From: Candidatus Methanomethylicia archaeon
GTDB taxonomy: Archaea; Thermoproteota; Methanomethylicia; CALHIW01
Assembly: GCA_038845975.1 (NCBI GenBank)
Contig: JAWBQF010000003.1
Coordinates: forward strand, 64,001 to 128,000
Direction: 5' to 3'
DNA: 64,000 nucleotides
The position numbers and the translations under genes were made by a program. Positions within the stretch are counted from its first letter, which is position 1; each line of letters begins with the position of its first letter. Shown in pieces: positions 5,138 through 54,570 of this stretch. The notes under the pieces are model-generated. The model searched no databases and had not been told where the DNA came from. It saw only the letters and a list, made by a program, of their open reading frames with translations.

Positions 5138-5843
5138 GGCTTTGTTAACTTTAGATTTATTTGGGAGTTCTCTCCCTTATTTATGGTGAATTATGGTTAA
5201 AGTTGTTAGGTTTGTAGGGAGTGAACTCCATTTACTCTAGTTGTTTATTACTTATATATTTCCGTTCTTCTAGAATGGCTTCAGATATTTAGTTTATTGT
5301 TGTAGGAGTTATTCTATATTATCGTGGTTTATCTTAATCTTCTATTGATGGGAGGGATGTTAGGATTGTTATGGTTGATCTATTGTAAGTAGGTTTTAAG
5401 AGTAAGGTTATTTATGTTGCGTTTGAGCCATTATTGAGGAGGATTCTCTATGTATGGGTTTGTGATGTTGCAAATATACTTACATCACTAACATTCCTTA
5501 AAAGATTAGAGCTATTTATGGTTCAAATATAGTTGTATTAAGTGATGGTGCTCATTATTATAAAGCATCATGTAGAATATTAAAATTAAAACATGAATTG
5601 TATAGTTTAGAAGTTAGAATTAATGGAGAGAATAATACAATACATTAAGGATAGAACTAAGCTATTCGATAACTACATACCATGCATGAAGGATAGATGT
5701 GATGGTGAACATGTATTAATGCTTATAAAATCAATAATATACATACTAAACAAACATGGATTAACAGGAAAATAAAAGCTAAGGAATTCATAGAAACACA
5801 ATACCAAAATAGAGGTAATAAACATGCTTAAGTTAACAAAGCC
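5138..5843 (+). mobile_element. IS6-family element, copy A (transposase frameshifted)
   Basis: Perfect 14-bp TIR GGCTTTGTTAACTT/AAGTTAACAAAGCC; 8-bp target duplication TCAGTAAG; DDE relics VAFEP, VLSDGAHYYKASC and MERIIQYIKDRTKLFDN. Confidence 0.9.
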
Positions 5844-9958: not shown

Positions 9959-10017
9959 GCAACATTCTCCTTTAAGAAATTATCACAAAATTATTTAAAC
10001 TTTTCTTCCTTATTTAT

Positions 10018-10731
10018 GGCTTTGTTAACTTTAGATTTATTTGGGAGTTCTCTCCCTTATTTATGGTGTTAGTATGTCTAAAGTTGTTAGATTTGTTAGG
10101 GAGAGAACTCCATTTACTCTAGTTGTTTATGGTGCTTATATATTATTCCCATTCATGTTCTTCTAGGATGGCTTCAGATATTCTAAGCTTATTGTTGTTA
10201 GGAGTTATTCTATATTATCATGGTTTATCTTAATCTTCTATTGATGGGAGGGATGTTAGGATTGTGGTTGATGATACTATTATTAGTGTGGGGTCTATGA
10301 GGAGGATTGTTTATGTTGCGTTTGAGCCATTGTTGAGGAGGATTCTATATGTATGGGTTTGCGATATTGCAACATACTTACATCACTAACATTCCTTAAA
10401 AGATTAAAACTACCTATGGTTCTAATATAGTTGTATTAAGTGATGGAGCTCATTATTATAAAGCATCATGTAAGATATTAAAATTAAACATTATATAGTT
10501 TAGAGGTTAGAATTAATGGATGGAATAATACAGTATGTTAAGGATAGAACTAAGCTATTCGATAATTATATACCGTGCATGAGGATAAATGCGGTAATGA
10601 GCATGCATTAATGCTTATGAAGTCAATAATATACATACTAAACAAACATGGATAAGGAAGATAAAAGCTAAGAATTCTAGAAACACAATAACAAAATAGA
10701 GGTAATAAAACATGATTAAGTTAACAAAGCC
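10018..10731 (+). mobile_element. IS6-family element, copy B (frameshifted, flanks not duplicated)
   Basis: Same perfect TIRs; flanks TTATTTAT and TGAGAAAG do not match. Confidence 0.9.
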
Positions 10732-29572: not shown

Positions 29573-30442
29573 AATAACTTAAATATTTAAGTTTTACATC
29601 TTATAGAAACATTCCATAAATTTAGCTATATTAATTCTGGATAATCATTGATTATGGAAGAATTGGAAATTTGACTGTTAAGATAGATAAATGTAAGAAG
29701 GATATTAGTGTAGATCATCTTGTAAATAATCCTCTAAGCTTTTAAGTCTAGTAACTGATTATTTGGAATATGTGCTAAAGTTAAGCTGAGAACTTACATA
29801 GCTGTAAGAGAATACATATTAAACTTATTTAATATCGGTTAGTACTCAAGAGAAAGTTTTCTATAAGCCTCCTCATATTCCAGTTTTACAGGCTTAAACA
29901 TGTCTAATCCCTTATTTTGTACTATGTATCTACGATTCTTAACATTACCTTAAGATAGCATTAACAACTATGTAGTTCTAGCGTATTTAGATGAGGAGAT
30001 TCATAGATAAGCTAAACTAGAAGCTATCATTGAAGCATATTATGTAGTTGAACTCCATATTAACTTATGGCTATCAACGTTTCAGAATAGCTAAATTTAA
30101 TAGAGTCAAGCTAATAGATATGTTCCGCTGAATATATGTTCATGTTAGAGATTTTGATCTATACTAGTTTTGGACTACATTTAGGATTGTTAAAATACGT
30201 TCTAAAAGGTAATAGGAGGAAGAGCAGTAATAGAAATAGTCTACATCCGCCAGCCAACTATTAAGCATTCTTCAATCATATCTGAATTGCTAAGGGGAGA
30301 ATTCTCCTAAGCCCTTAGGATAATTGAAGATTTTACAAAATAGATATCCCTAACTTTAGTTGTGGGATGCTGGATCATATGGAGGAGGATCTAAATAGAT
30401 GTTAATAGTAATGCTTAAATATGTTACTTATATTAGGTATTC

Positions 30443-31186
30443 ATGTCGTTGCTTGTTGTTAATGATCTTCATGTAAATGTTAATGGTAGGAATGTATTGA
30501 AAGGTGTAAATATAAGTATTGGTCCTGGTGAAGTTCATGTACTTCTAGGCCCCAATGGCTCCGGTAAAACTACTCTTGTTAATGCTATCATAGGGAATCC
30601 TAAAGTTAAAGTCATTAGGGGGAAAATATACTTTAAGGGTAGGGATATAACAGATACGTCGATGTATGAAAGAGTAAGAATGGGAATTGGAGTTTCCTTC
30701 CAGCATCCACCGAGAATTAAGGGTGTAAAGCTTAGAGATCTACTTTTAAATATGGCTTCTAAGCTTGGCAGGGAGGTTAATATTGAGAGAGTTTCCTCTC
30801 TTGTTAAGATGAGAGATCTTATTGACCGTGATGTTAATGTTGGTTTTTCAGGTGGTGAACTTAAAAGATCCGAAATTCTACAGTTACTAATTCAATCCCC
30901 TGAGCTTGTACTACTTGATGAGCCTGACTCCGGTGTTGATGTTGAGAACCTCATAGTTATAGCAAATGCAATTAATGAAATGTGTGGGTTAAACATTAAG
31001 CCAAGTATGAGAAGTAAATCAGCTCTACTTATAACTCATCTAGGATACATATTAAATTATGTTAAGGCTGACCGTGCACATGTATTAGTGAATGGTAGAA
31101 TAGCATGTTCAGGTAAGCCTAATGAAATATTGGAGCAAATAGCTAAACATGGCTTTGAGAAATGTGCTGAATGCTTAGTGAAATAA
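30443..31186 (+). CDS. sufC: Fe-S assembly ATPase SufC/SmsC
   Basis: GPNGSGKT, FSGGELKR, LLDEPDSGVD and C-terminal CxxC. Confidence 0.92.
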   Translation: MSLLVVNDLHVNVNGRNVLKGVNISIGPGEVHVLLGPNGSGKTTLVNAIIGNPKVKVIRGKIYFKGRDITDTSMYERVRMGIGVSFQHPPRIKGVKLRDLLLNMASKLGREVNIERVSSLVKMRDLIDRDVNVGFSGGELKRSEILQLLIQSPELVLLDEPDSGVDVENLIVIANAINEMCGLNIKPSMRSKSALLITHLGYILNYVKADRAHVLVNGRIACSGKPNEILEQIAKHGFEKCAECLVK

Positions 31187-31288
31187 ATCATGTGAACACT
31201 AATAAAGTATATCTATCAATATTTCAATAAATCCATTTTGGAAATGACTAAGGTAATTGTAGATTATAACACTTATTACATAACAAGC

Positions 31289-31878
31289 ATCTTATGAACT
31301 TTAGCTTTATTTAAGTTTTTCACTTTATTCATGGTGAAGCTATAGCTAAAGCTATTAGGTTTACTAGGAAGAGTTTCATTCATATTGGTTGTTTATAATG
31401 CTTATATATTTGTTATCTAGAAATGACTTATTATAGAGTTATACATCCATATCGTCCTAGTTCATCTTAAGTTTTCTATTTGAGCTTGATAAGAGGAATA
31501 TTAGAATTAATAGTTAATGATACTACTACTAGATTCTAGAGTGAAGTTGTATGCTATCTTAGTCTCTATCAAGAAAGGTGTTCACACAAGTTTGTGAGTT
31601 TAACTGATGGAGCACTATAGAGAAACATACAGAATACTAAACTTAAAGCATGAAGTATATAGTTTAGAGATTAGAAACCTAATGAGGCAAGTCATACAGT
31701 ATGTTAAAGATAGAACTAGGCTATTTGGTAATTATTGAAGAGAAATGTGATGGTGAGCATAAATATGTATCCATGAAGTTAATAGTGTGACTAAACGAAA
31801 CATTGATTAATGAGAAGATAAAATGGGAATTCATGGAAACAATATCAAAAATGATTAAATATGTTTAGATTCATAACC
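31289..31878 (+). mobile_element. Heavily degraded IS6 copy F between sufC and sufB
   Basis: Recognisable segments GAAGTATATAGTTTAGAGATTAGAAACC and CAGTATGTTAAAGATAGAACTAG. Confidence 0.75.
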
Positions 31879-31919
31879 TGTAACGTTATATTTTTATGTA
31901 AGCTATTCTTTAAGGGTTT

Positions 31920-33137
31920 ATGAGTTTAAACAAGTCTAGAAGAATTGAGGAGGTAAAAGGAAAAGCTAAGGAGGCATTAACAAAACCTCCAAGTATTGGT
32001 CCTGATATTGATGTTTCAAAGTTTAAGTTTGAATCTAAACCCCTAGAGCATGTTACAGATGATTTGGCTCAGCGTGCTTCAATAGTTGGTGTAGATTTGA
32101 ACGGTAGGGGTAGAGCTGGAACATATATTCAGATAGATCATTCCCCATTATTGGAGAAGTCTATGTTAAGCGATGTTGAAGTTATGAGTATAGGTAAAGC
32201 ATTAGAGGAGTATGATTGGCTTTTGGAATACTACTGGAATGCTCTAAATGTGGATACTGATAAGTTTACTGCTCTTGCAGAGCTTAAGAGGAATGAGGGC
32301 TTCTTCGTAAGGGTTAGAAGAGGAGTTAAAGTTGAGCTTCCTGTTCAGACATGTTTATACTTGAGAACAAGTAAGCTATCTCAAAATCTTCACAACATAA
32401 TTCTAGTTGAGGAGGATAGTGAGCTTCATGTAGTTACTGGATGTGCATCACCTAGAGTTGCTGAAGGGCTTCATGTAGGTGTATCTGAATTCTACGTTAA
32501 GAATGGGGGGAAGTTAACGTATACTATGGTGCATGCCTGGGCTGAAGATGTTGATGTTAGACCTAGAACTGGAGTTATACTTGAGGATAATGCCTCCTTT
32601 ATAAGCATATATGTTAACCTACATCCCGTCAGAACACTACAGATGATGCCTAAGATACGTATAAATGGTGTTAATTCGAGAGTAAGTCTAATATCTGTTA
32701 TAACTGCTTCCGGTAAAAGCTACTTTGATGTTGGAGGGGAAGTATATATTAAAGGTGATTTTGGAAGAGCGGAAATAGTTTCAAAAACAATAGCTAAAGA
32801 CAATGGGAAAGCCATATCTAGAGGAGTAATAATCGGTGAGGGGAGAGGGGTTAAGGGACATTTAGAATGTAGGGGAATTATGCTTACACCATCAGCATCA
32901 ATAATAGCAATACCTCAGCTTGAAGCTAGATCAAGAGATGTCGAGTTAACACATGAAGCAGCCATAGGTAAAATTGCTGAAGATGAAATCTACTATCTAG
33001 TAGCTAGAGGATTCAGTGAGGAGGAAGCAACATCAATAATATTGAGGGGATTTATGGATATAGATATTAAGGATTTACCGCCAATACTAGTAACACAAAT
33101 TAAAAAGACACTGGACATAGTAGCAAAAACCCTTTAA
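31920..33137 (+). CDS. sufB: Fe-S scaffold SufB/SufD-family (SmsB)
   Basis: QNLHNII, VRPRT, GHLECRG, LTHEAAIGKI and YLVARG. Confidence 0.9.
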   Translation: MSLNKSRRIEEVKGKAKEALTKPPSIGPDIDVSKFKFESKPLEHVTDDLAQRASIVGVDLNGRGRAGTYIQIDHSPLLEKSMLSDVEVMSIGKALEEYDWLLEYYWNALNVDTDKFTALAELKRNEGFFVRVRRGVKVELPVQTCLYLRTSKLSQNLHNIILVEEDSELHVVTGCASPRVAEGLHVGVSEFYVKNGGKLTYTMVHAWAEDVDVRPRTGVILEDNASFISIYVNLHPVRTLQMMPKIRINGVNSRVSLISVITASGKSYFDVGGEVYIKGDFGRAEIVSKTIAKDNGKAISRGVIIGEGRGVKGHLECRGIMLTPSASIIAIPQLEARSRDVELTHEAAIGKIAEDEIYYLVARGFSEEEATSIILRGFMDIDIKDLPPILVTQIKKTLDIVAKTL

Positions 33138-33141
33138 CTAT

Positions 33142-34536
33142 CTATATCTTGCTTAGAGCTCTTCTTAATGTTTCCCTGTATAGTGGTGTTTTGCCAAGCA
33201 TGCTTTCTTCCTAAACGATCTCTAGGTCCAGCTTCGCCTTACCATAATCTAAAGGTACTCCACCCTTATAAGCATATTATTTTCCACTAAGATATCCTCA
33301 ATCTTAGCCATATTTCTTGTTATTTTTCCCATTATGTTATCTAAATCCTCAATAAGCTTCCACATAAGATCACATAGCCACTTAACATAATGCTTCACTC
33401 TATCTAACCCTATAGCTCTAACAATATCGTCTATAGCAATAAGAATGTATCTATCTCTAAGATTCTTTCTAAAAGCTTTCTCAGCAATTCTATCGATAAT
33501 TAGCGAAATAGGTCTTAATAATGCATGACCAAGCAGAGTATTTTGCTGGAGGAGATCCATGATGCTTCTAAACCAATTTTGGAAATATCAATTAGCATAG
33601 ATGATGTTAAAGACTTCCTAACATCTTTATCCTCAAGAGCATCAATATATACTACTACACCATCCATAAAGAAATCATTAAACCTCCTAACAAACTCTCT
33701 TAAAAGCCTAGTTTTACCACATCTCTCAGGACCATATATGTGGAAAGATATAGTTCTAAATCGACTACAATACTCATTTAAAGCTTTAAGCTCTCCAATT
33801 CTGGCTTTGTTAACTTTAGCTTTATTTGGGTCTTCCTTATTTATGGTGATGGTATGTCTAAAGTTGTTAGGTTTTGTTAGGAAGAGAACTCTATTTACTC
33901 TAGTTGTTTACCAATTATATATTCGTTCATCTAGGATGGCTTTAGATATCCTACTTTATTGTTGTTAGGAGTTATGTATCTATATTATAATGGTTTAGAT
34001 CTTTAAGCTTCCTATTCAAATTTGGTAGGAGGGTTAGAATTTTATAGTTGATGATACTATTATAAGTTAGGCTCTATGAGGAAGATTGTTTATGTTGCTT
34101 TTAAGCCATTATTAAGAAAAATTCTATATGTATGGGTTTGTGATGTTACAAGTATGCTTACATCACTAACATTAAAAGATTAGAGCTATCTATGGTTCTA
34201 ATATAATTGTATTAAGTGATGGTGTTCATTATTATAAGGCATCATGTAGAATATTGAATTTAAAGCATAATAAAGTATTTAAAAGTTAGAATTAGTGGAG
34301 GGAATTATACAATACATTAGGATAGATAAACTATCAATAATTAATACCGTGTATGAAGGATAAGTGTGATGGTGAACATGTATTAATTCTTATGAAGTCA
34401 ATAGTATAGCTAAACGAACATGGATTAATAAGAAGATAAAAGCTAAGAATTCTAGAAACACAATACCAAAATAGAGGTAATAAAATGTTTAAGTTAACAA
34501 AGCCCTAATTCTATCAATAAATCTTATATTCTCCAT
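33142..34536 (-). pseudogene. Archaeal P-loop ATPase pseudogene interrupted by IS6 copy C
   Basis: Removing the IS rejoins MENIRFIDRIGELKAL...YGPERCGKT (Walker A); Walker B ILIAIDD lies in ORF 33249-33560; further frameshifts. Confidence 0.8.
33803..34504 (+). mobile_element. IS6-family element, copy C (frameshifted)
   Basis: Perfect TIRs; target duplication CCAATTCT/CTAATTCT (7/8). Confidence 0.9.
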
Positions 34537-34709
34537 TACTCATCCTAATTAAAGCATGATATAGTATTGATAAACTAAATATTTTCCTCAATGAAGACAT
34601 TAACCCCAATATGAAGTATGGGAACATCATATATTTAAATATCTTCTAAATCATAAACCCTCATTTTTTAAATATAGACTTTGCAACTCTAAGTTAAAAT
34701 AGAACTCAT

Positions 34710-34788
34710 CTGAAAACTCTTTAGATGTTGTTAAGACTTAATTAAGTTAATAATTTAACTATAAATTAATTATGGAGTTTTCAGGCAG
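34710..34788. repeat. Possible ~80-bp mini-MITE
   Basis: CTGAAAACTC / GAGTTTTCAG inverted repeat, with ACTCAT direct repeats at 34704 and 34789. Confidence 0.35.
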
Positions 34789-35372
34789 ACTCATAAAGTA
34801 TACTAAAACCTATTTAAGCTCTCTAGAAACCCTATTGAAAAGGCTTTAAATAGCCTCTAAAACTGCTCATATCAGAAATATGATTCTAATACAAAACGTA
34901 CTAATTATGGAAGATTAAAATACATAGGGTAGACATAATCTCTCTTTTAATATTTGAATAGTTTATACATCTTATAATCTACAACCATCTATCCCTATGA
35001 TTACTATAGCGATTAGTAGATACTGTAAGAAGTATACGGCTAGCTCACTAATCTATTTACATGAACTCTTAAATATTGAGGAGACTGCTAATAACTTTCC
35101 ATCTGTATTATGAGGAGCTTCTTCTCTACTACATTACTATTACGTGTACTCTAGACCTAGCAGCTTAGGAAGGAAGCTATAGTAAATAAGTTACATGCCG
35201 AACTTCTACAATACATTTATAGTTCTTCAATATAGTGTAGCTGTCTACATATCCCATAGATTGATTTGTAAGCTGGAGTTTTAATAGTTTCATTATTCAT
35301 GTTATCATATCAGGTATATTTTCCATGTTTGTAATACAAATATTTATAGGGAGTAAGCTACTTATACTATTT

Positions 35373-35531
35373 GGGTGTGAGCAAGCTTAAGCCAGATAAC
35401 TGGCTAAGCTTAACAGTTTACCTTAAGATTATGGGTTTGAAGGATCTATGGGAAACCATAGATTCTAGAACTCAGTCTTAAGGTAGATTGTTAAGATTTA
35501 GTTAAGTATTTGGCTTAGGCTTAGAACACCC
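35373..35531 (+). ncRNA. Candidate 159-nt rod-like structured RNA (or fold-back element)
   Basis: Both ~77-nt arms pair end to end around a GAAA loop (35452-35455); mismatches are mostly G-U compatible on +; TTTATA at 35343. Confidence 0.55.
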
Positions 35532-35538
35532 ACTAATT

Positions 35539-36726
35539 CTATAATTTATGATGGATTGAATGTGTAAATGTTATGGTTGTATTAGTGAATGGGCAGAGTG
35601 GATCAGCTTCGAAAATGTTTCCTGTAAGTAGATATGCTCTTGATCTACATCCTCCACAGTTTTCTCTATGAATACATGATTTACATGGTTTCTCCAGATT
35701 TTCCCTATTACGTAGCTTAGCTAGTATCCTATTTCCCCTCCATATTTTTATAGCAGGCTCCTTAATTATGTTTCCAATACCTATCTGTAGGAAGACACAG
35801 GGCCATACTTCACCATACCATTTAACGTAGAACATTCCTCTTCCAGCTATACATCCATGAAATAGCTTGCTATCTATTTTCCTAGATAGATATGCAAAGT
35901 ATTCAGGTAAACCTATAGGAACTACTAAGGCGTTAAGGTTTCTCTGTATGCTTACTGTTGTTTGGATTACTTTTAGGATTTCATTTTTACTTAGCATTTC
36001 ACTATTTATGTTTAAACCTCTACCGAATGGTTGGAATTGGTAGAGAAGTATTACATGTGCTCCAAGTCTATCTGCTAGGTATAGTAGGCTTGGAAGCTCG
36101 TGAAGATTTAGTTTTGAAACGGTAATGTTAACCTGTAGGTAAAGTTTCTCTTTCAAGCTGTTTTTAATACCCTCCATCGTCTTAATCCATGTTCCAGGTA
36201 CTCCTCTAAAGTAGTCGTGGAGTTGTGGCTCAATAAAATCTAAACTTACAGCAACACCAGCAACCCCCTTCTTGGAGAGTTCTTTAGCTATGTTCTCGGA
36301 TATTAGGGTTCCATTAGTTGCTATTACTGTTTCGAAACCGTAGCTTCTAGTATAGTCTATTATTTCAATTATGTTATTATTCATTAATGGATCCCCCCCA
36401 GTTAAAACAAGCATTTTAAACTCAGGTACTGTAGCTATTGAATCTATCATTTTAAATATGTTTTCTAGAGGTGGATCCATTTTTACTTCTCCTCCCCTCA
36501 CCTCGCAATGTATACATTTCATATTGCACCTATTTGTAATCTCCAATACTGGATGCGGGGGATAGCCGAAGCATCCAGCTCCATATGCTCCAGCAGCAAC
36601 TTTAAACAGTTTGTTTAGAGAGAGTATCCATCTACTCATCCTCCATCCAGTAGCTCTTCTAAAAGTTAGAGCAGTAGATATCTGTTTAAAGCTGAGAGCT
36701 AGCTCAGATAGATTGTGGAGACGCAT
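35539..36726 (-). CDS. Radical SAM/SPASM protein
   Basis: CNMKCIHC, TGGDPL, GCIAGRG..VWPC and CKSCIHRENCGGCRSRA..DPLC. Confidence 0.88.
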   Translation of the reverse strand: MRLHNLSELALSFKQISTALTFRRATGWRMSRWILSLNKLFKVAAGAYGAGCFGYPPHPVLEITNRCNMKCIHCEVRGGEVKMDPPLENIFKMIDSIATVPEFKMLVLTGGDPLMNNNIIEIIDYTRSYGFETVIATNGTLISENIAKELSKKGVAGVAVSLDFIEPQLHDYFRGVPGTWIKTMEGIKNSLKEKLYLQVNITVSKLNLHELPSLLYLADRLGAHVILLYQFQPFGRGLNINSEMLSKNEILKVIQTTVSIQRNLNALVVPIGLPEYFAYLSRKIDSKLFHGCIAGRGMFYVKWYGEVWPCVFLQIGIGNIIKEPAIKIWRGNRILAKLRNRENLEKPCKSCIHRENCGGCRSRAYLLTGNIFEADPLCPFTNTTITFTHSIHHKL

Positions 36727-36727
36727 T

Positions 36728-37645
36728 TCAGCACCCTACAATATATCCTAGAGATAGGAGAAGAGATGCTGAAATGAATAGTATAAGTGTTCCACTCATA
36801 GCCGGTATAAGTCTTCTAGAATTTACATACTCCCTACTTAAAATCATACAGTTCCTAATAGCTAACGGTATTGTAGCTAGTACGATTAGACTTGCTGAAG
36901 GCATAACTCTACAGGTAACACCTACCATTACGATTAAATATGTTAAGCCTACTAGGAGGTAATAGATGTATTTTGCTCTCTCCCTTCCAATCCTAACAAC
37001 TAGGTTTAGCTTCCCAGCTTTTCTATCAGCTTCATAGTCTGGGAACTCATTAATCCATATAACTAGGGTTATGAGAATACCTGGTATAAGTGAGGAAATT
37101 ATTACCTCCCTTAATAGTAGGCTTAACGTCTGTACATAGAAGCTTCCTAATACTATTAATGGACCGTAAGATAACCCTATGAGAAACTCTCCAATCCCTC
37201 TATAAGCCCACATAAACGGAGGAGTACAATATAAAGCTCCAGTAAATATGCCTAGAAGCATCAAGACCAATACTGGGAAGCCACAAATCAAGGTTAAATA
37301 TAAGCCTATAGCTATAGCAGCCATATAGAAAATAAAGCCAGCCTTAAATACTGTTTTAGGATTTAAAAGCCCTAATGGAAGCATACGGCTACCAGCATTA
37401 AATGGAGTAATGTCTTTTTCATCAACAATAATATCCACTCCACTTCTCCAGTCAAAGTACTCGTTAAATGTATAGCATCCAGCCATAGCTAAAGAAACCC
37501 CGAGAAAAGTTAGGAGGAAAACATGTATGTTAAGGACTTTATAGTAGTAGTATGCTAAGCAGGTCCCTAAAATTATTGATGGAATACCTGCAAGGAAAAA
37601 CTTAACCCTAACTACATTAATCCATGGCTTAACATAACCAGACAT
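36728..37645 (-). CDS. UbiA-family prenyltransferase (MenA-like)
   Basis: NEYFDWRSGVD and NEFPDYEADRKAGK Asp-rich motifs; multi-TM. Confidence 0.88.
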   Translation of the reverse strand: MSGYVKPWINVVRVKFFLAGIPSIILGTCLAYYYYKVLNIHVFLLTFLGVSLAMAGCYTFNEYFDWRSGVDIIVDEKDITPFNAGSRMLPLGLLNPKTVFKAGFIFYMAAIAIGLYLTLICGFPVLVLMLLGIFTGALYCTPPFMWAYRGIGEFLIGLSYGPLIVLGSFYVQTLSLLLREVIISSLIPGILITLVIWINEFPDYEADRKAGKLNLVVRIGRERAKYIYYLLVGLTYLIVMVGVTCRVMPSASLIVLATIPLAIRNCMILSREYVNSRRLIPAMSGTLILFISASLLLSLGYIVGC

Positions 37646-38125
37646 AAAGCTAACTAATAATTAAGCTTAAAAATTTTTCCAAACTAGCTAAGCTTTGTAA
37701 ATATTCATCATTTCTAACAGTATTCTCATCAAGCTTCAATTTAAGATTTAGAATTAACTCTACAAATATTAAATCCATTTAACCATCAAGCTCACGAACT
37801 TAACAGTTAAATATATTTCATTTAATAAAGCCATAGCTTATAAAGCCTCTAATTAAACCTATTACTCCTAGTATAGGTTCTCCTAATGATAATATGTTCT
37901 AGCATAATTAAGTAATATGGGAAGCTAGGTTTTAAATCTACTAGGCTTAATACCTTTTTATCTGATTAAGGAATAATTATTAGTCGCTATGTGGGTTTAT
38001 AGATGTGAATTTCAGAATTAAGTTGTAAGCCTTAGATTTTGATGAGAATAAATCGTACAAGCATCTTTTTCCCATAGATATATCAAAGTAAACATCTTAC
38101 TTAAACTCTAATTTAACCCATAAAG

Positions 38126-38899
38126 TTAGCATTTAATGCTATCTCTTACAGTATGGTGTTGGAAGAATTTATTAGCTTCAATATATGATTCTTTAGTCCC
38201 TATATCCCACCAATAACCATCCAAAACATATCCATAAACAGATTCTCTTCTATGAAGCCACTCTATAAATCTCCCAGGCTGATCCTTCTCTAAGCCTTCC
38301 TCAACATATTCTTTAATTCTTGAAAGTATCCTCTTTGGAAATATGTAGATACATGTTCCTATAAGAGTTGTTCTTGGTTGCTGTGGTTTCTCCTCAAAAT
38401 CTATTATTCTACCCTCCTCATCAAGTAGGACTGTTGCATAATGCTTAGCTAAATCTCTATTCTTCACATCGTATAGAGCAACTATCGATGATGATTTCTC
38501 CCTATAGAAGTCAATAATCCCTTTAAGGCTAGTAGTAAACAAGTTATCTCCAGCTATAATTAAACAGTCACTATGAATATTTGATGTAATTTCAGCTAAT
38601 GCCTTTACAGCTCCAGGTTTCTCCTCCTCACATCGCGACTTATCAACAACAATCTCTACATATTGATAATTTTTAGTATTAAGCCACCTCCTAAAACATT
38701 CTTCAAATCTAAGATTTGTAGAAATAACAATACGCTCTACATCACCTACCAAATTCAACCTATCCAATATATATTCAATAATAGGCTTCCCAGCTATCGG
38801 TAGGAGGGGCTTAGGCTTATCCATAGTTAAAGGCCAAAGCCTCTTAGCATATCCTCCAGCTAAAATAATAGCTATCATCCTCCACCCCACAATAAGCAC
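38126..38899 (-). CDS. Sugar-1-phosphate nucleotidyltransferase
   Basis: ILAGGYAKRLWPLT, KPLLP, AGDN, FEEKP and WDIGT. Confidence 0.9.
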   Translation of the reverse strand: MLIVGWRMIAIILAGGYAKRLWPLTMDKPKPLLPIAGKPIIEYILDRLNLVGDVERIVISTNLRFEECFRRWLNTKNYQYVEIVVDKSRCEEEKPGAVKALAEITSNIHSDCLIIAGDNLFTTSLKGIIDFYREKSSSIVALYDVKNRDLAKHYATVLLDEEGRIIDFEEKPQQPRTTLIGTCIYIFPKRILSRIKEYVEEGLEKDQPGRFIEWLHRRESVYGYVLDGYWWDIGTKESYIEANKFFQHHTVRDSIKC

Positions 38900-39489
38900 C
38901 CAATTCCCTACTCCACTAAGTATTAAAAATCATACTTATAAATTCTTAAATATCTATTACATTGGCAATATGGAAAAGTATATACTACTTAGCCTAAAAT
39001 CATAGGTTGAAACTATTACCTCCCATATAAACTTCTCCAGTAAAATACTAAATTAAAATTAGGAGGATTTGCCTACGAGACCTCTCATGCTATTAATCTA
39101 GCAAGCATCTGAATCTGTAGCCATCATATCTCCAGTTATATTCCCTACTAAGCACATTAAAGCCAATCTCCATATTCCCCCTAAGTCTAACCAACTCAGC
39201 CTATGTTCCTTAGAATCCCATCATGTCTCTTAAATTCAGCTATAATATCCTTCCTTAACCTAGCGATTTCACTCCATATCTTAGCAAATTCTCCATCACG
39301 CCACTCATCTTTTATGGATTTCGCTGTTACTGTTTGAGTAAAGTTTAGTTTTTAGATGTTTCAGTTACTCCATGCTCTATTTGATCGTTAGCTTGTCTCT
39401 ACTGCTTCTTCAATGTTAAGCTCCTCAGTTAGTTTTAATGTTCCTCTACATTATTATGATTATTACTTGCATCCTATATTTATTTCTCA

Positions 39490-39830
39490 TATTTTAGGTA
39501 CTTCAACTATTCCACCTAGCAATGCAATCTATCCAGGCAATTTGTATTTCAACGTCGAATTCTCTGGATGTGAGTTCAAGCCTTCTAGTCATGCTCGCCT
39601 TGAGGAGGTGCATTCCGCTACGGGGATTGCAGATTTTCTTACTCATTAGTAGGCTGAATGCTATGCTTATGATGTGGTTTCCAATCCTGTGGAGGATGAG
39701 TATGTTTCACGATCTTTCTTAAGCCTACGGCCTCATCATGGTCTTCAGCATGCTTTAGGAGTTTTCAAACATCTTTGAAGTTGTAGGTGTAGGCAGCATC
39801 CATAACTAGCATGTAGTGGGTGGAAACCTT
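39490..39830 (-). pseudogene. GT2 glycosyltransferase remnant
   Basis: Minus-strand fragments YMLVMDAAYTY and HRIGNHIISIAFSLL..NPRSGMHLL..SREFDVEIQIA. Confidence 0.6.
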
Positions 39831-39849
39831 CTCTATGGCGGGTCTGATA

Positions 39850-40455
39850 GCTCAAGTTCTCTATGAAGCATGTTACTACTCCTGCTTATTGGCTACTCTG
39901 TCCAGGTTCATAGACATTAAACAATCTCAGTATAACGTATTTTAAGTCTTGCTTAGCATAGAATTTAATAAACTTCTCATACATTAGTTTTGTAAGGCCA
40001 TGGATAAAATTGAATTTAATTGATGATTTTCACTTATAGGTAGGATTTTAGGTTCACCATATACAGCTGTACTACTTAAATAGACCCTGTAAATCCTAAT
40101 TTAAAAATGGTTAAAATTGTAAGCTTAACACCACTATCTAGACATGCCTTAGCTACATTAGCTGTTCCAGCTACATTATTCCTGAAGTAGAGTATGGTCT
40201 TCCTCATTGATTCTTCTACATTTATTAGGTAGCTGTATGCACCACTACATTAACATCCTCTAGGGCTTTCTTCATAACATTGACATTTAATACATTACCT
40301 TTAAGGAAAGATACCTTATACATGCAGTCTTTTCCAAGCAAACCCCGCTGCTCTTTCAAGATTATCAAAGACTAAAACATCATAACCATAATTCTTCAGA
40401 AAATTGCTGTATTATACCCTATAAAACCCATACCACCAGTAACCAGAATATACAT
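39850..40455 (-). pseudogene. NAD-dependent epimerase (GalE-like) pseudogene
   Basis: MYILVTGGMGFIG, VFDNL, NVAGTANV, SSTAVYGEP and LRLFNVY, with frameshifts and stops. Confidence 0.8.
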
Positions 40456-41327
40456 AGTCAATACAGTATTTCTAAATTTATATTTATTTACTTGCTAGTT
40501 ACCCAAGTCTTTCAAAGCTTCTTTAATGATTAGTATTGCTTTAAACTTACTGATATTGGTTTTACTGAAATCACGTAGTTAAAGCTTTAATTTCTACAAT
40601 CACCTTACCATAATACTTGCTTATTATTCTATTTTCTGTTTTCTAGATGTTTCTTCTTGTTATTGTTAGTGTTATTATTACATACATATGTAACCTCCAT
40701 GTTTCAGGTTTTCACCATATTCCAATACGAATTTCCTAGCAAGATCTCTAAATTCTTCGGCTTCCTCAAGTATAATAGTATTACCCTCACTCTTCTCAAT
40801 ATATTCCTCTATCTTCTTTAACTCAACTCTAGATGATGGATTCAGCACGCTTAACTTAATGGTTCTTGTTACTAGCTTCCCCTATTAGGACCTCCTTAGA
40901 TTCATCCCTACTAACCCCTATGAACTAGAACTTGAAATTAACTTGCTTGAAGAAATCAATCATAGACATGACTCTTTTAAAGAATGTGTTCTGATTAAAA
41001 TCGATCTGTTTGACTTCTTTATCAACATGCTTCATAGAATTTTCCTCAGAACTCAGGAACTCTACATCCAGAAAGGATAGAGTTTCTAGTTCAAATTGTA
41101 GAGGTGAACTAGGAGCCTAAGCTCAGTAAGGTAAAACGGGATATAACAGTTTTTAAGTCGGTTCTAAACATTTCCACTTACCTAAACAGTTCCTCACAAA
41201 ACTTAACACCAGCAATAAATGAAAAGAATTAATGCAAAGAATCTTTTAATGTCTCTTAACAGATCTTGGGGATTTATGTAAAGTCGTGGAAAAATGTAGT
41301 GAAGATATTTAGATATGTTGTTGGACT

Positions 41328-53858: not shown

Positions 53859-54570
53859 GGCTTTGTTAACTTTAGATTTATTTGGGAGTTCCCTCCCCTA
53901 TTTATGGTGTGTTTATGGTTAAAGTTGTTAGGTTTTAGGGAGAGAACTCCATTTACTCTAGTTGTTTATGGTGCTTACATATATTTTCGTTCTTCTAGAA
54001 TGGCTTCGGATATTTTAAGCTTCATTATTGTTAGGAGTTATGTATCTATATTATCGTGGTTTATCTTAATCTTCTATTGATGGGAGGGATGTTAGATTTT
54101 ATGGTTGATGATACTATTATTAGTGTAGGTTCTAAGAGTAAGGTTGTTTATGTTGCATTTGAGCCATTATTAAGAAGGATTCTATATGTATGGTTTGTGA
54201 TGCTGCAAACATACTTACATCTCTAGCATTCCTTAGAAAATTAGAGCTATTTACGGTTCTAATATAGTTTATTAAGTGATGGAGCTCAATACTATAAGCA
54301 TCATGTAGAATATTAAAATTAAAACATGAATTGTATAGTTTAGAGGTTAGAATAATGGAGGGAATAATACAATATATTAAGGATAGAACTAGATTATTCG
54401 ATAACTACATACCATGCATGAAGGATAAATGCGATAATGAGCATTAATGCTTATGAAGTCAATAGCATACATACTAAACAAACATGGATAAGGAAAATAA
54501 AAGCTAAGAATTCATAGAAAACATAATACCAAAAATAGAGGTGATAAAACATGCTTAAGTTAACAAAGCC
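53859..54570 (+). mobile_element. IS6-family element, copy D (frameshifted)
   Basis: Perfect TIRs; perfect 8-bp target duplication ATCTATTA. Confidence 0.9.

Follow-up and report, generated by a model that had tools for sequence, protein, structure and literature searches.

In Pyrobaculum and Sulfolobus it is common for small-RNA genes to run convergently up to the 3' ends of protein genes, examples being C/D box and H/ACA-like small RNAs (sRNAs) and asR1-3 of Pyrobaculum (PMC3388794). A comparable arrangement is present in a 64,000-nucleotide (nt) stretch of the genome of an uncultured hot-spring archaeon, a Candidatus Methanomethylicia (GenBank assembly GCA_038845975.1, contig JAWBQF010000003.1, positions 64,001 to 128,000; hereafter the window, to whose numbering all positions refer), where a 159-nt hairpin (core 35373-35531) converges with a radical SAM gene. 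The hairpin resembles the convergent Thermoproteota genes in being a small unit with a promoter-like box, set against a protein gene a few bases from its stop codon; it differs from the RNAs described there, 50-70-nt guides with C/D or H/ACA boxes and a kink-turn (K-turn), in being a 159-nt plain rod without boxes. The hairpin is single-copy, favours one strand in its mismatches and in the stability of its fold, follows a promoter-like box, and is conserved in one diverged strain. The reading favoured here, tentatively and with confidence somewhat short of even, is that it is an orphan single-copy gene for a predicted + strand, rod-shaped small RNA of ~160 nt, perhaps derived from a mobile element.

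Among repetitive fold-backs, the Sulfolobus miniature inverted-repeat transposable elements (MITEs), the enterobacterial ERIC and RU elements and the Correia elements are multi-copy, occur with related insertion sequences (ISs), and are often transcribed as hairpin RNAs. The hairpin shares with fold-back MITEs its size, full-length self-complementarity, intergenic site by a gene end and flanking direct repeats; unlike them, it is single-copy, has no partner IS, and carries one-sided mismatches that are absent from the genome's own fold-back repeats. The single-strand origins and promoters of rolling-circle plasmids and conjugative elements (ssoA, ssoU and Frpo) are imperfect one-strand hairpins of ~150-200 nt in which G.T is tolerated, found on plasmids or transferred DNA by rep or leader genes, whereas the present hairpin is chromosomal, lacks a neighbouring rep or leader gene, and matches no plasmid or phage. 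As a long, imperfect, G.U-rich rod with small symmetric loops it also recalls eukaryotic microRNA precursors (pre-miRNAs) and hairpin RNAs, the families to which its sole Rfam matches, all weak, belong; however, the genome yielded no gene for RNase III, and those matches, far under threshold, reflect hairpin shape only. In function the closest counterpart of the hairpin would be a convergent archaeal small-RNA gene, and in appearance a fold-back MITE, yet it belongs with neither, because it has no boxes or guide pocket, is single-copy and lacks a partner IS. Literature searches on archaeal long-hairpin or fold-back RNAs turned up nothing comparable.

The arms of the hairpin pair nearly end to end, with GGGTGT/ACACCC closing the base and CTATGG-GAAA-CCATAG forming the tip, and both the sequence and the RNA fold bear out the pairing that an earlier annotation, made from the DNA letters alone (the first-pass annotation), had aligned by hand. 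Folded as + strand RNA, 35365-35540 forms a single unbranched rod of -94.5 kcal/mol (z -14.5), against a mean of -39.3 and a standard deviation of 3.8 for 200 dinucleotide shuffles, none of which folded as well (0/200); the - strand reaches -60.5 kcal/mol (z -8.5). The 159-nt core holds 69 pairs (37 A-U, 21 G-C and 11 G-U), has GAAA as its cap, and is broken only by a bulge and four small internal loops; the fold of the - strand has a single G-U pair, and the GNRA tetraloop is present on the + strand only. A four-way junction was rejected as the final fold, being 25 kcal/mol worse than the rod (-67.3 vs -92.2 kcal/mol for the whole element), and is possible as a folding intermediate; the left arm folded alone gives a 12-pair hairpin of -25.7 kcal/mol. 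With DNA parameters the two strands fold at -39.4 (+) vs -29.5 (-) kcal/mol. At 75 C the + strand rod is intact at -31.6 kcal/mol, the - strand (-13.3) having mostly melted, and at 85 C the + strand rod is still intact at -17.2 kcal/mol, with most of the - strand rod lost (-5.6); in these models, the length of the rod makes up for its low G+C. Open frames are short, with a 36-amino-acid TTG frame at 35371-35481 and others in 34500-35540 of at most 38 amino acids.

The asymmetry between strands was assessed by aligning the left arm globally, and blind to structure, against the reverse-complemented right arm, which gave 58 matches, 8 G.T-type, 2 C.A-type, 7 purine.purine and 0 pyrimidine.pyrimidine mismatches, and 5 gap columns. 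On the + strand the purine.purine mismatches are 2 A.A, 2 G.G, 2 A.G and 1 G.A, and both C.A mismatches sit within multi-base internal loops. The orientation is thus + strand-friendly in 15 of 17 mismatches (two-sided binomial p ~0.002 under strand symmetry). The first-pass annotation had counted about 11 G-U against 1 A-C: the bias it described is upheld, the exact counts are not, and since RNAfold seeks pairs, its own count of 11 G-U is biased upward. The same annotation had argued that such a pattern is not expected of a neutrally decaying inverted repeat, and simulation agrees. In 300 strand-symmetric decays of a perfect palindrome, each with 10 transitions and 7 transversions, the strand difference had a standard deviation of 10.5 kcal/mol and a maximum of 37.3, reaching at least 30 in 2/300; the observed value is 35.0. 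For eight other fold-backs of the genome, most of which belong to repeat families, the gap between the two strands is 0.2-11.9 kcal/mol.

A regional mutation bias was ruled out as the source of this asymmetry. As a local, polarised meter of mutation, a copy of a 705-bp repeat lying 0.9-1.7 kb upstream was scored against a consensus built from 55 full-length copies; its + strand transitions number 7 C>T and 14 A>G (G.U-making) vs 18 G>A and 8 T>C (A.C-making), and its transversions divide into 8 to purine and 9 to pyrimidine. The spectrum is symmetric, and the G excess is limited to the hairpin (G 38, C 23), the adjoining unique spacer 34800-35342 having G 73 and C 92. With regional bias excluded, selection on the + strand fold, as RNA or as single-stranded DNA, is left, or a process confined to the 159 nt, such as local + strand transcription. 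The strand bias of the hairpin is real and local.

A TATA-like box, TTTATA, occupies -30 to -25 relative to the first base of the hairpin, at the coordinates the first-pass annotation gave, and the - strand of the hairpin has no such box at that distance. The geometry is that of four tRNA genes of the same genome: among the 16 tRNA genes found by aragorn, the same hexamer type stands at -30 to -25 of the mature 5' end in tRNA-Met, tRNA-Cys and tRNA-Ile and at -29 in tRNA-Thr (4/16). A TTTATA exactly at -30 is seen for 0.13% of random AT-rich positions, and a TTTAWA beginning anywhere from -33 to -27 for 2.9%. Metatranscriptome run X17 matches a tenth of the sampled words and has a single contig, 35552-35771, which lies inside the radical SAM gene and does not include the hairpin; being an assembled contig, it is silent on strand, on RNA ends and on absence of a hairpin RNA.

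The locus is present in hot-spring metagenomes of several studies: DNA runs X1-X8 contain 96-100% of its sampled words, and it also occurs in X9-X11, X13 and X18. Of the assembled metagenomes, two contigs match it, being 99.97-100% identical and representing the same locus and population. Run X12 contains a diverged strain, differing by ~2.6% in the flanks, with 16 listed differences in 34800-35367 and 18 in 35568-36297, and none in the 200-nt gap 35368-35567 that includes the hairpin. Under uniform placement, zero change in that gap has p ~0.007 with all 35 listed differences, and p ~0.01-0.03 with the 20 differences of the 979-nt X12 contig alone, 1 of those 20 being unlisted and possibly near the contig start, close to the TATA box. 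On the + strand the X12 differences comprise 23 pyrimidine vs 9 purine transitions, mostly in the gene and unpolarised.

In its own genome (G000; 2.77 Mb in 76 contigs, 93% complete) the hairpin is single-copy by both BLAST and a covariance model (R1), and by sequence searches it is an orphan, with no Rfam family and no homologue among the genomes searched. It matched nothing among 72,556 plasmids, 50,697 phages and viral contigs, and a cmscan of 30000-41000 against Rfam 15 at E up to 10 placed nothing on it at or near a gathering score, the best matches being MIR9555 (29.3 bits, cut-off 119) and MIR444 (19.6 bits, cut-off 110). No IS in the genome shares its ends (18-nt ends, at most 4 mismatches); matches are scattered, and the two best, with 2 mismatches each, have unrelated continuations in coding-like sequence. 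The statement of the first-pass annotation that the hairpin resembles neither tRNA, signal recognition particle (SRP) RNA, RNase P RNA nor the IS ends seen there is in agreement with these searches.

Several more specific identities were considered and rejected. The genome's own SRP RNA lies elsewhere (C50:8470-8787, 129.8 bits). A retron msr-msd was set aside on the lack of any RVT_1 match in the genome at E up to 0.01, and an RNase III substrate of pre-miRNA-like kind on the lack of a Ribonucleas_3_3 match in the same 93%-complete genome. A C/D box or H/ACA sRNA was rejected as well: cmscan gave no snoRNA-type (small nucleolar RNA-type) match overlapping the hairpin, the internal loops are not K-turn-like, and there is no large pocket. 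An element of IS200/IS605 type (a palindrome-associated transposable element, PATE) was also discounted, the hairpin being single and full-length with direct-repeat flanks, and the genome's few IS200/IS605 traces lying on other contigs (2 partial Y1 transposase matches and 3 TnpB-type matches, one within a 401-amino-acid open frame). No match to archaeal 16S ribosomal RNA was found in the assembly, and aragorn recovered only 16 tRNA genes; with much of its RNA gene set missing from the bin, RNA genes may lie on unassembled pieces.

For the RNA itself we infer transcription, ends and function along the following lines. Archaeal RNA polymerase would start at or near G35373, 24 nt past TTTATA, and a local hairpin would form first in the 5' arm of the transcript; completion of the 3' arm would then produce the 69-pair rod with its GAAA cap. 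The G.U pairs and purine.purine internal loops would hold the + strand rod at 75-85 C, where the complementary strand would largely melt. Because the gene faces the end of an operon, 7 nt from the stop codon, and has no T-run terminator, action in cis is the best guess: where the UbiA-radical SAM operon ends, the rod may form the structured beginning of an antisense RNA, or a roadblock, and may affect that end through antisense pairing or transcriptional collision. A double-stranded, protein-binding RNA would be an alternative role, equally open. The DNA may have arrived as a fold-back insertion, as the 6/7 flanking direct repeat suggests, and then been retained.

A number of observations weigh against a gene for a structural RNA. 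A-U or G-U accounts for 48/69 pairs of the rod, and the hairpin has 38.4% G+C, close to the 33.7% of the genome, against 54.7% for the SRP RNA and a mean of 63.7% (range 54.8-70.7) for the 16 tRNAs; lying so far under the known structural RNAs of the organism, this value counts against a classical stable structural RNA and lowers confidence. Structural RNAs of AT-rich thermophiles are reportedly, in work of 2002 ascribed to Klein, Misulovin and Eddy, normally G+C islands. An intrinsic terminator was rejected, there being no T-run after the stem on either strand and 0 terminator-like sites in 34800-35800. The tally of G.U varies with the alignment, at 8:2 structure-blind vs 11:0 in the fold, and the conservation is that of one diverged strain, from assembled contigs. 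No homologue was found by BLAST in 60 relatives or by covariance model R1 in 100 relatives (70 of them at least 90% complete), so that the search for further copies and homologues that the first-pass annotation had proposed returned the one copy in the hairpin's own genome. The same-genus genome G001 (62% complete) gave no hairpin match, with DNA matches of at most 29 nt and a best radical SAM match of 35% identity. Four orthologous radical SAM loci in other metagenome-assembled genomes (MAGs), at 60-72% identity, have no such hairpin downstream; these loci (L021, L022, L023 and L027) come from MAGs labelled Hecatellales and Thermoproteota and from one 'Dehalococcoidia' bin. In the 400 nt downstream of each, the most stable 180-nt fold is branched (-43.6 to -65.6 kcal/mol, 35-51% G+C), and none is a rod. 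Lastly, the setting is a 1.5-kb gene-free spacer that also holds the 705-bp high-copy repeat and a ~95-nt MITE-like repeat, and the flanking direct repeat is compatible with the relic of a mobile element.

The main rival explanation, unlikely but to be taken seriously, is that the hairpin is an inert relic of a fold-back (MITE-like) insertion, a palindromic non-autonomous element that made a 7-bp target duplication and has since decayed, its bias, TATA-like box and GAAA loop being coincidental. The flanks ACTATTT and ACTAATT are alike at 6/7, which random 7-mers 159 nt apart in the AT-rich DNA of this genome match or exceed in 0.23-0.33% of cases (~0.3%), the spacer is rich in repeats (55 full-length copies of one, ~35 of the other), other long fold-backs exist in the genome, the G+C is near background, no conserved homologue appeared in the relatives searched, and the arms are just ~73-76% identical as DNA. 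Against a relic stand the single copy found by both search methods, the 18-nt ends shared with no element of the genome, the 15/17 one-sided mismatches despite a symmetric local spectrum, the strand symmetry of the other fold-backs, the hairpin's freedom from listed changes in a strain whose flanks have diverged by ~2.6%, and a TATA geometry identical to that of tRNA genes. The box lies outside the putative duplication, so that an inserted element would have landed 17 nt behind an existing promoter-like box. The first-pass annotation had offered a transcribed non-coding RNA or a mobilised fold-back: its first half gains from the asymmetry, the TATA geometry, the GNRA loop and the X12 conservation, and its second from the flanking repeat, a putative target duplication, while the single copy and the want of an IS with the same ends speak against that second half.

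Other explanations place the asymmetry in DNA or on the opposite strand. That the + strand acts as a single-stranded DNA hairpin, either an IS200/IS605-like end or recognition structure or a rolling-circle single-strand origin or promoter, is improbable: G.T wobbles stabilise DNA hairpins too, as the DNA-parameter folds reflect, IS200/IS605 gene traces occur in the genome, and rolling-circle plasmids have single-strand origins that are likewise long, imperfect palindromes, specific to one strand and of similar size, but the 10 kb to each side contain no gene for a transposase or Rep and none of plasmid-like kind, IS200/IS605 elements have short subterminal hairpins and do not duplicate their target, and the hairpin is single-copy and matches no plasmid, phage or viral contig. 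Quite improbable is a role on the - strand, in the 3' untranslated region of the radical SAM-UbiA message, where the hairpin would terminate transcription or shield the message from 3' exonucleases; it begins 7 nt past the stop codon, and the - strand still folds well beyond its shuffles, yet every asymmetry favours the opposite strand, the - strand rod has mostly melted by 75 C, no T-run follows it, and no hairpin of this kind accompanies the orthologous genes in four other MAGs. A double-stranded DNA site, whether a cruciform or a protein platform on repeated CTTAAG-like hexamers, is very improbable indeed. The motif [CG]TTAA[GC] occurs 6 times in the 159 nt (3 CTTAAG, 1 CTTAAC and 2 GTTAAG) against ~0.35 expected from genome-wide counts, although a palindrome with a nested palindrome (Table 1) would by itself multiply any hexamer, CTTAAG is over-represented 1.7-fold genome-wide, and a duplex gives no reason for strand-specific wobble and purine.purine mismatches.

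Table 1. Features at and around the hairpin, in window numbering.
Feature	Position	Strand	Basis or remark
TATA-like box TTTATA, -30 to -25 from first hairpin base	35343..35348	+	sequence
Left flanking direct repeat ACTATTT (possible target-site duplication)	35366..35372	.	sequence; 6/7 match to right flank
Left (5') arm of rod	35373..35451	+	fold and structure-blind alignment
Nested local palindrome within left arm	35383-35411	+	
GAAA (GNRA-type) tetraloop; UUUC on - strand	35452..35455	+	sequence, fold
Right (3') arm of rod	35456..35531	+	fold and structure-blind alignment
Right flanking direct repeat ACTAATT	35532..35538	.	fills 7 nt between hairpin and stop codon
Radical SAM / SPASM gene, 395 aa	35539..36726	-	Pfam Radical_SAM 4.8e-20, SPASM 5.9e-10

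The radical SAM gene is convergent to the hairpin, its stop codon lying at 35539-35541, 7 nt from the hairpin end as first annotated, and is the first downstream gene of a pair with UbiA (36728-37645); its protein has homologues at 98% (P0001), 85% (P0002) and 82% (P0003) identity. In the X12 strain one of the listed differences is a T at 35367, within the left flank repeat. The 480-nt spacer upstream of the UbiA-radical SAM pair contains, at ~37760-37835 on the - strand, another hairpin, of ~31 pairs with a CGUG loop and many G-U, folding at -40.7 kcal/mol on the - strand vs -16.9 on the + strand. A 103-amino-acid frame at 33249-33560 (- strand), with a weak, partial match to the archaeal ATPase_2 domain (2.3e-06, under cut-off), is probably a fragment of a gene; its DNA has a paralogue at C18:7680-8074 (84% identity).

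A genome-wide search for inverted repeats by self-BLAST, the useful scan for ranking, places the hairpin as the most stable fold-back, the next two being at -71.1 and -66.7 kcal/mol. Of the 40 candidates from a strict apex scan, none folds below -60.4 kcal/mol, and an ungapped hairpin scan gave 19 rows, mostly G/T-rich coding sequence, missing the target itself because of its bulges. The 500 nt that follow rps8 in this genome contain no giant hairpin. The fold-back ranked second in the self-BLAST search, of 172 nt (C34:3963-4134), is AT-rich inside and G+C-rich in its outer stem, which pairs perfectly over ~30 bp (-71.1/-67.1 kcal/mol), and in the next, of 196 nt (C1:89604-89799), the 3' end of the 705-bp repeat is present twice, in inverted orientation (-63.1/-66.7 kcal/mol). 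Two further hairpins of 25-35 pairs carry many G-U on one strand, C7:88023 (- strand; -62.5 vs -21.3 kcal/mol) and C40:16992 (+ strand; -62.9 vs -33.2 kcal/mol), the latter of coding appearance.

The ~705-bp repeat has, besides its full-length copies, more than 150 BLAST pieces in all, at roughly 70-83% identity, with window copies at 33799-34506, 5138-5843, 10014-10731 and 53859-54570; no open frame of at least 60 amino acids was found in the two copies checked, and the repeat has no Rfam match. The ~95-nt palindromic, MITE-like repeat at 34699-34794 has inverted ends around TCTGAAAACTC, folds symmetrically on the two strands, and is often found near copies of the 705-bp repeat.

Hardly any regulatory RNAs are known from uncultured thermophilic archaea, and neither of the computational signals customarily used, G+C islands and covariation, would pick out this hairpin. 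By a doubtful extension, it may stand for an undescribed kind of archaeal gene: single-copy, lineage-specific rod RNAs of 150-350 nt in hot-spring Thermoproteota, born of fold-backs, selected on one strand, and acting as double-stranded RNA regulators at operon 3' ends in hosts without RNase III. Should the hairpin be only a relic, its one-sided mismatches would need a mutational explanation beyond the local spectrum. Should the predicted + strand RNA be real, long rods rich in A-U and G-U can function at high temperature, and the locus would both illustrate a route from fold-back insertion to gene and help in studying how an uncharacterised UbiA-radical SAM operon is controlled.

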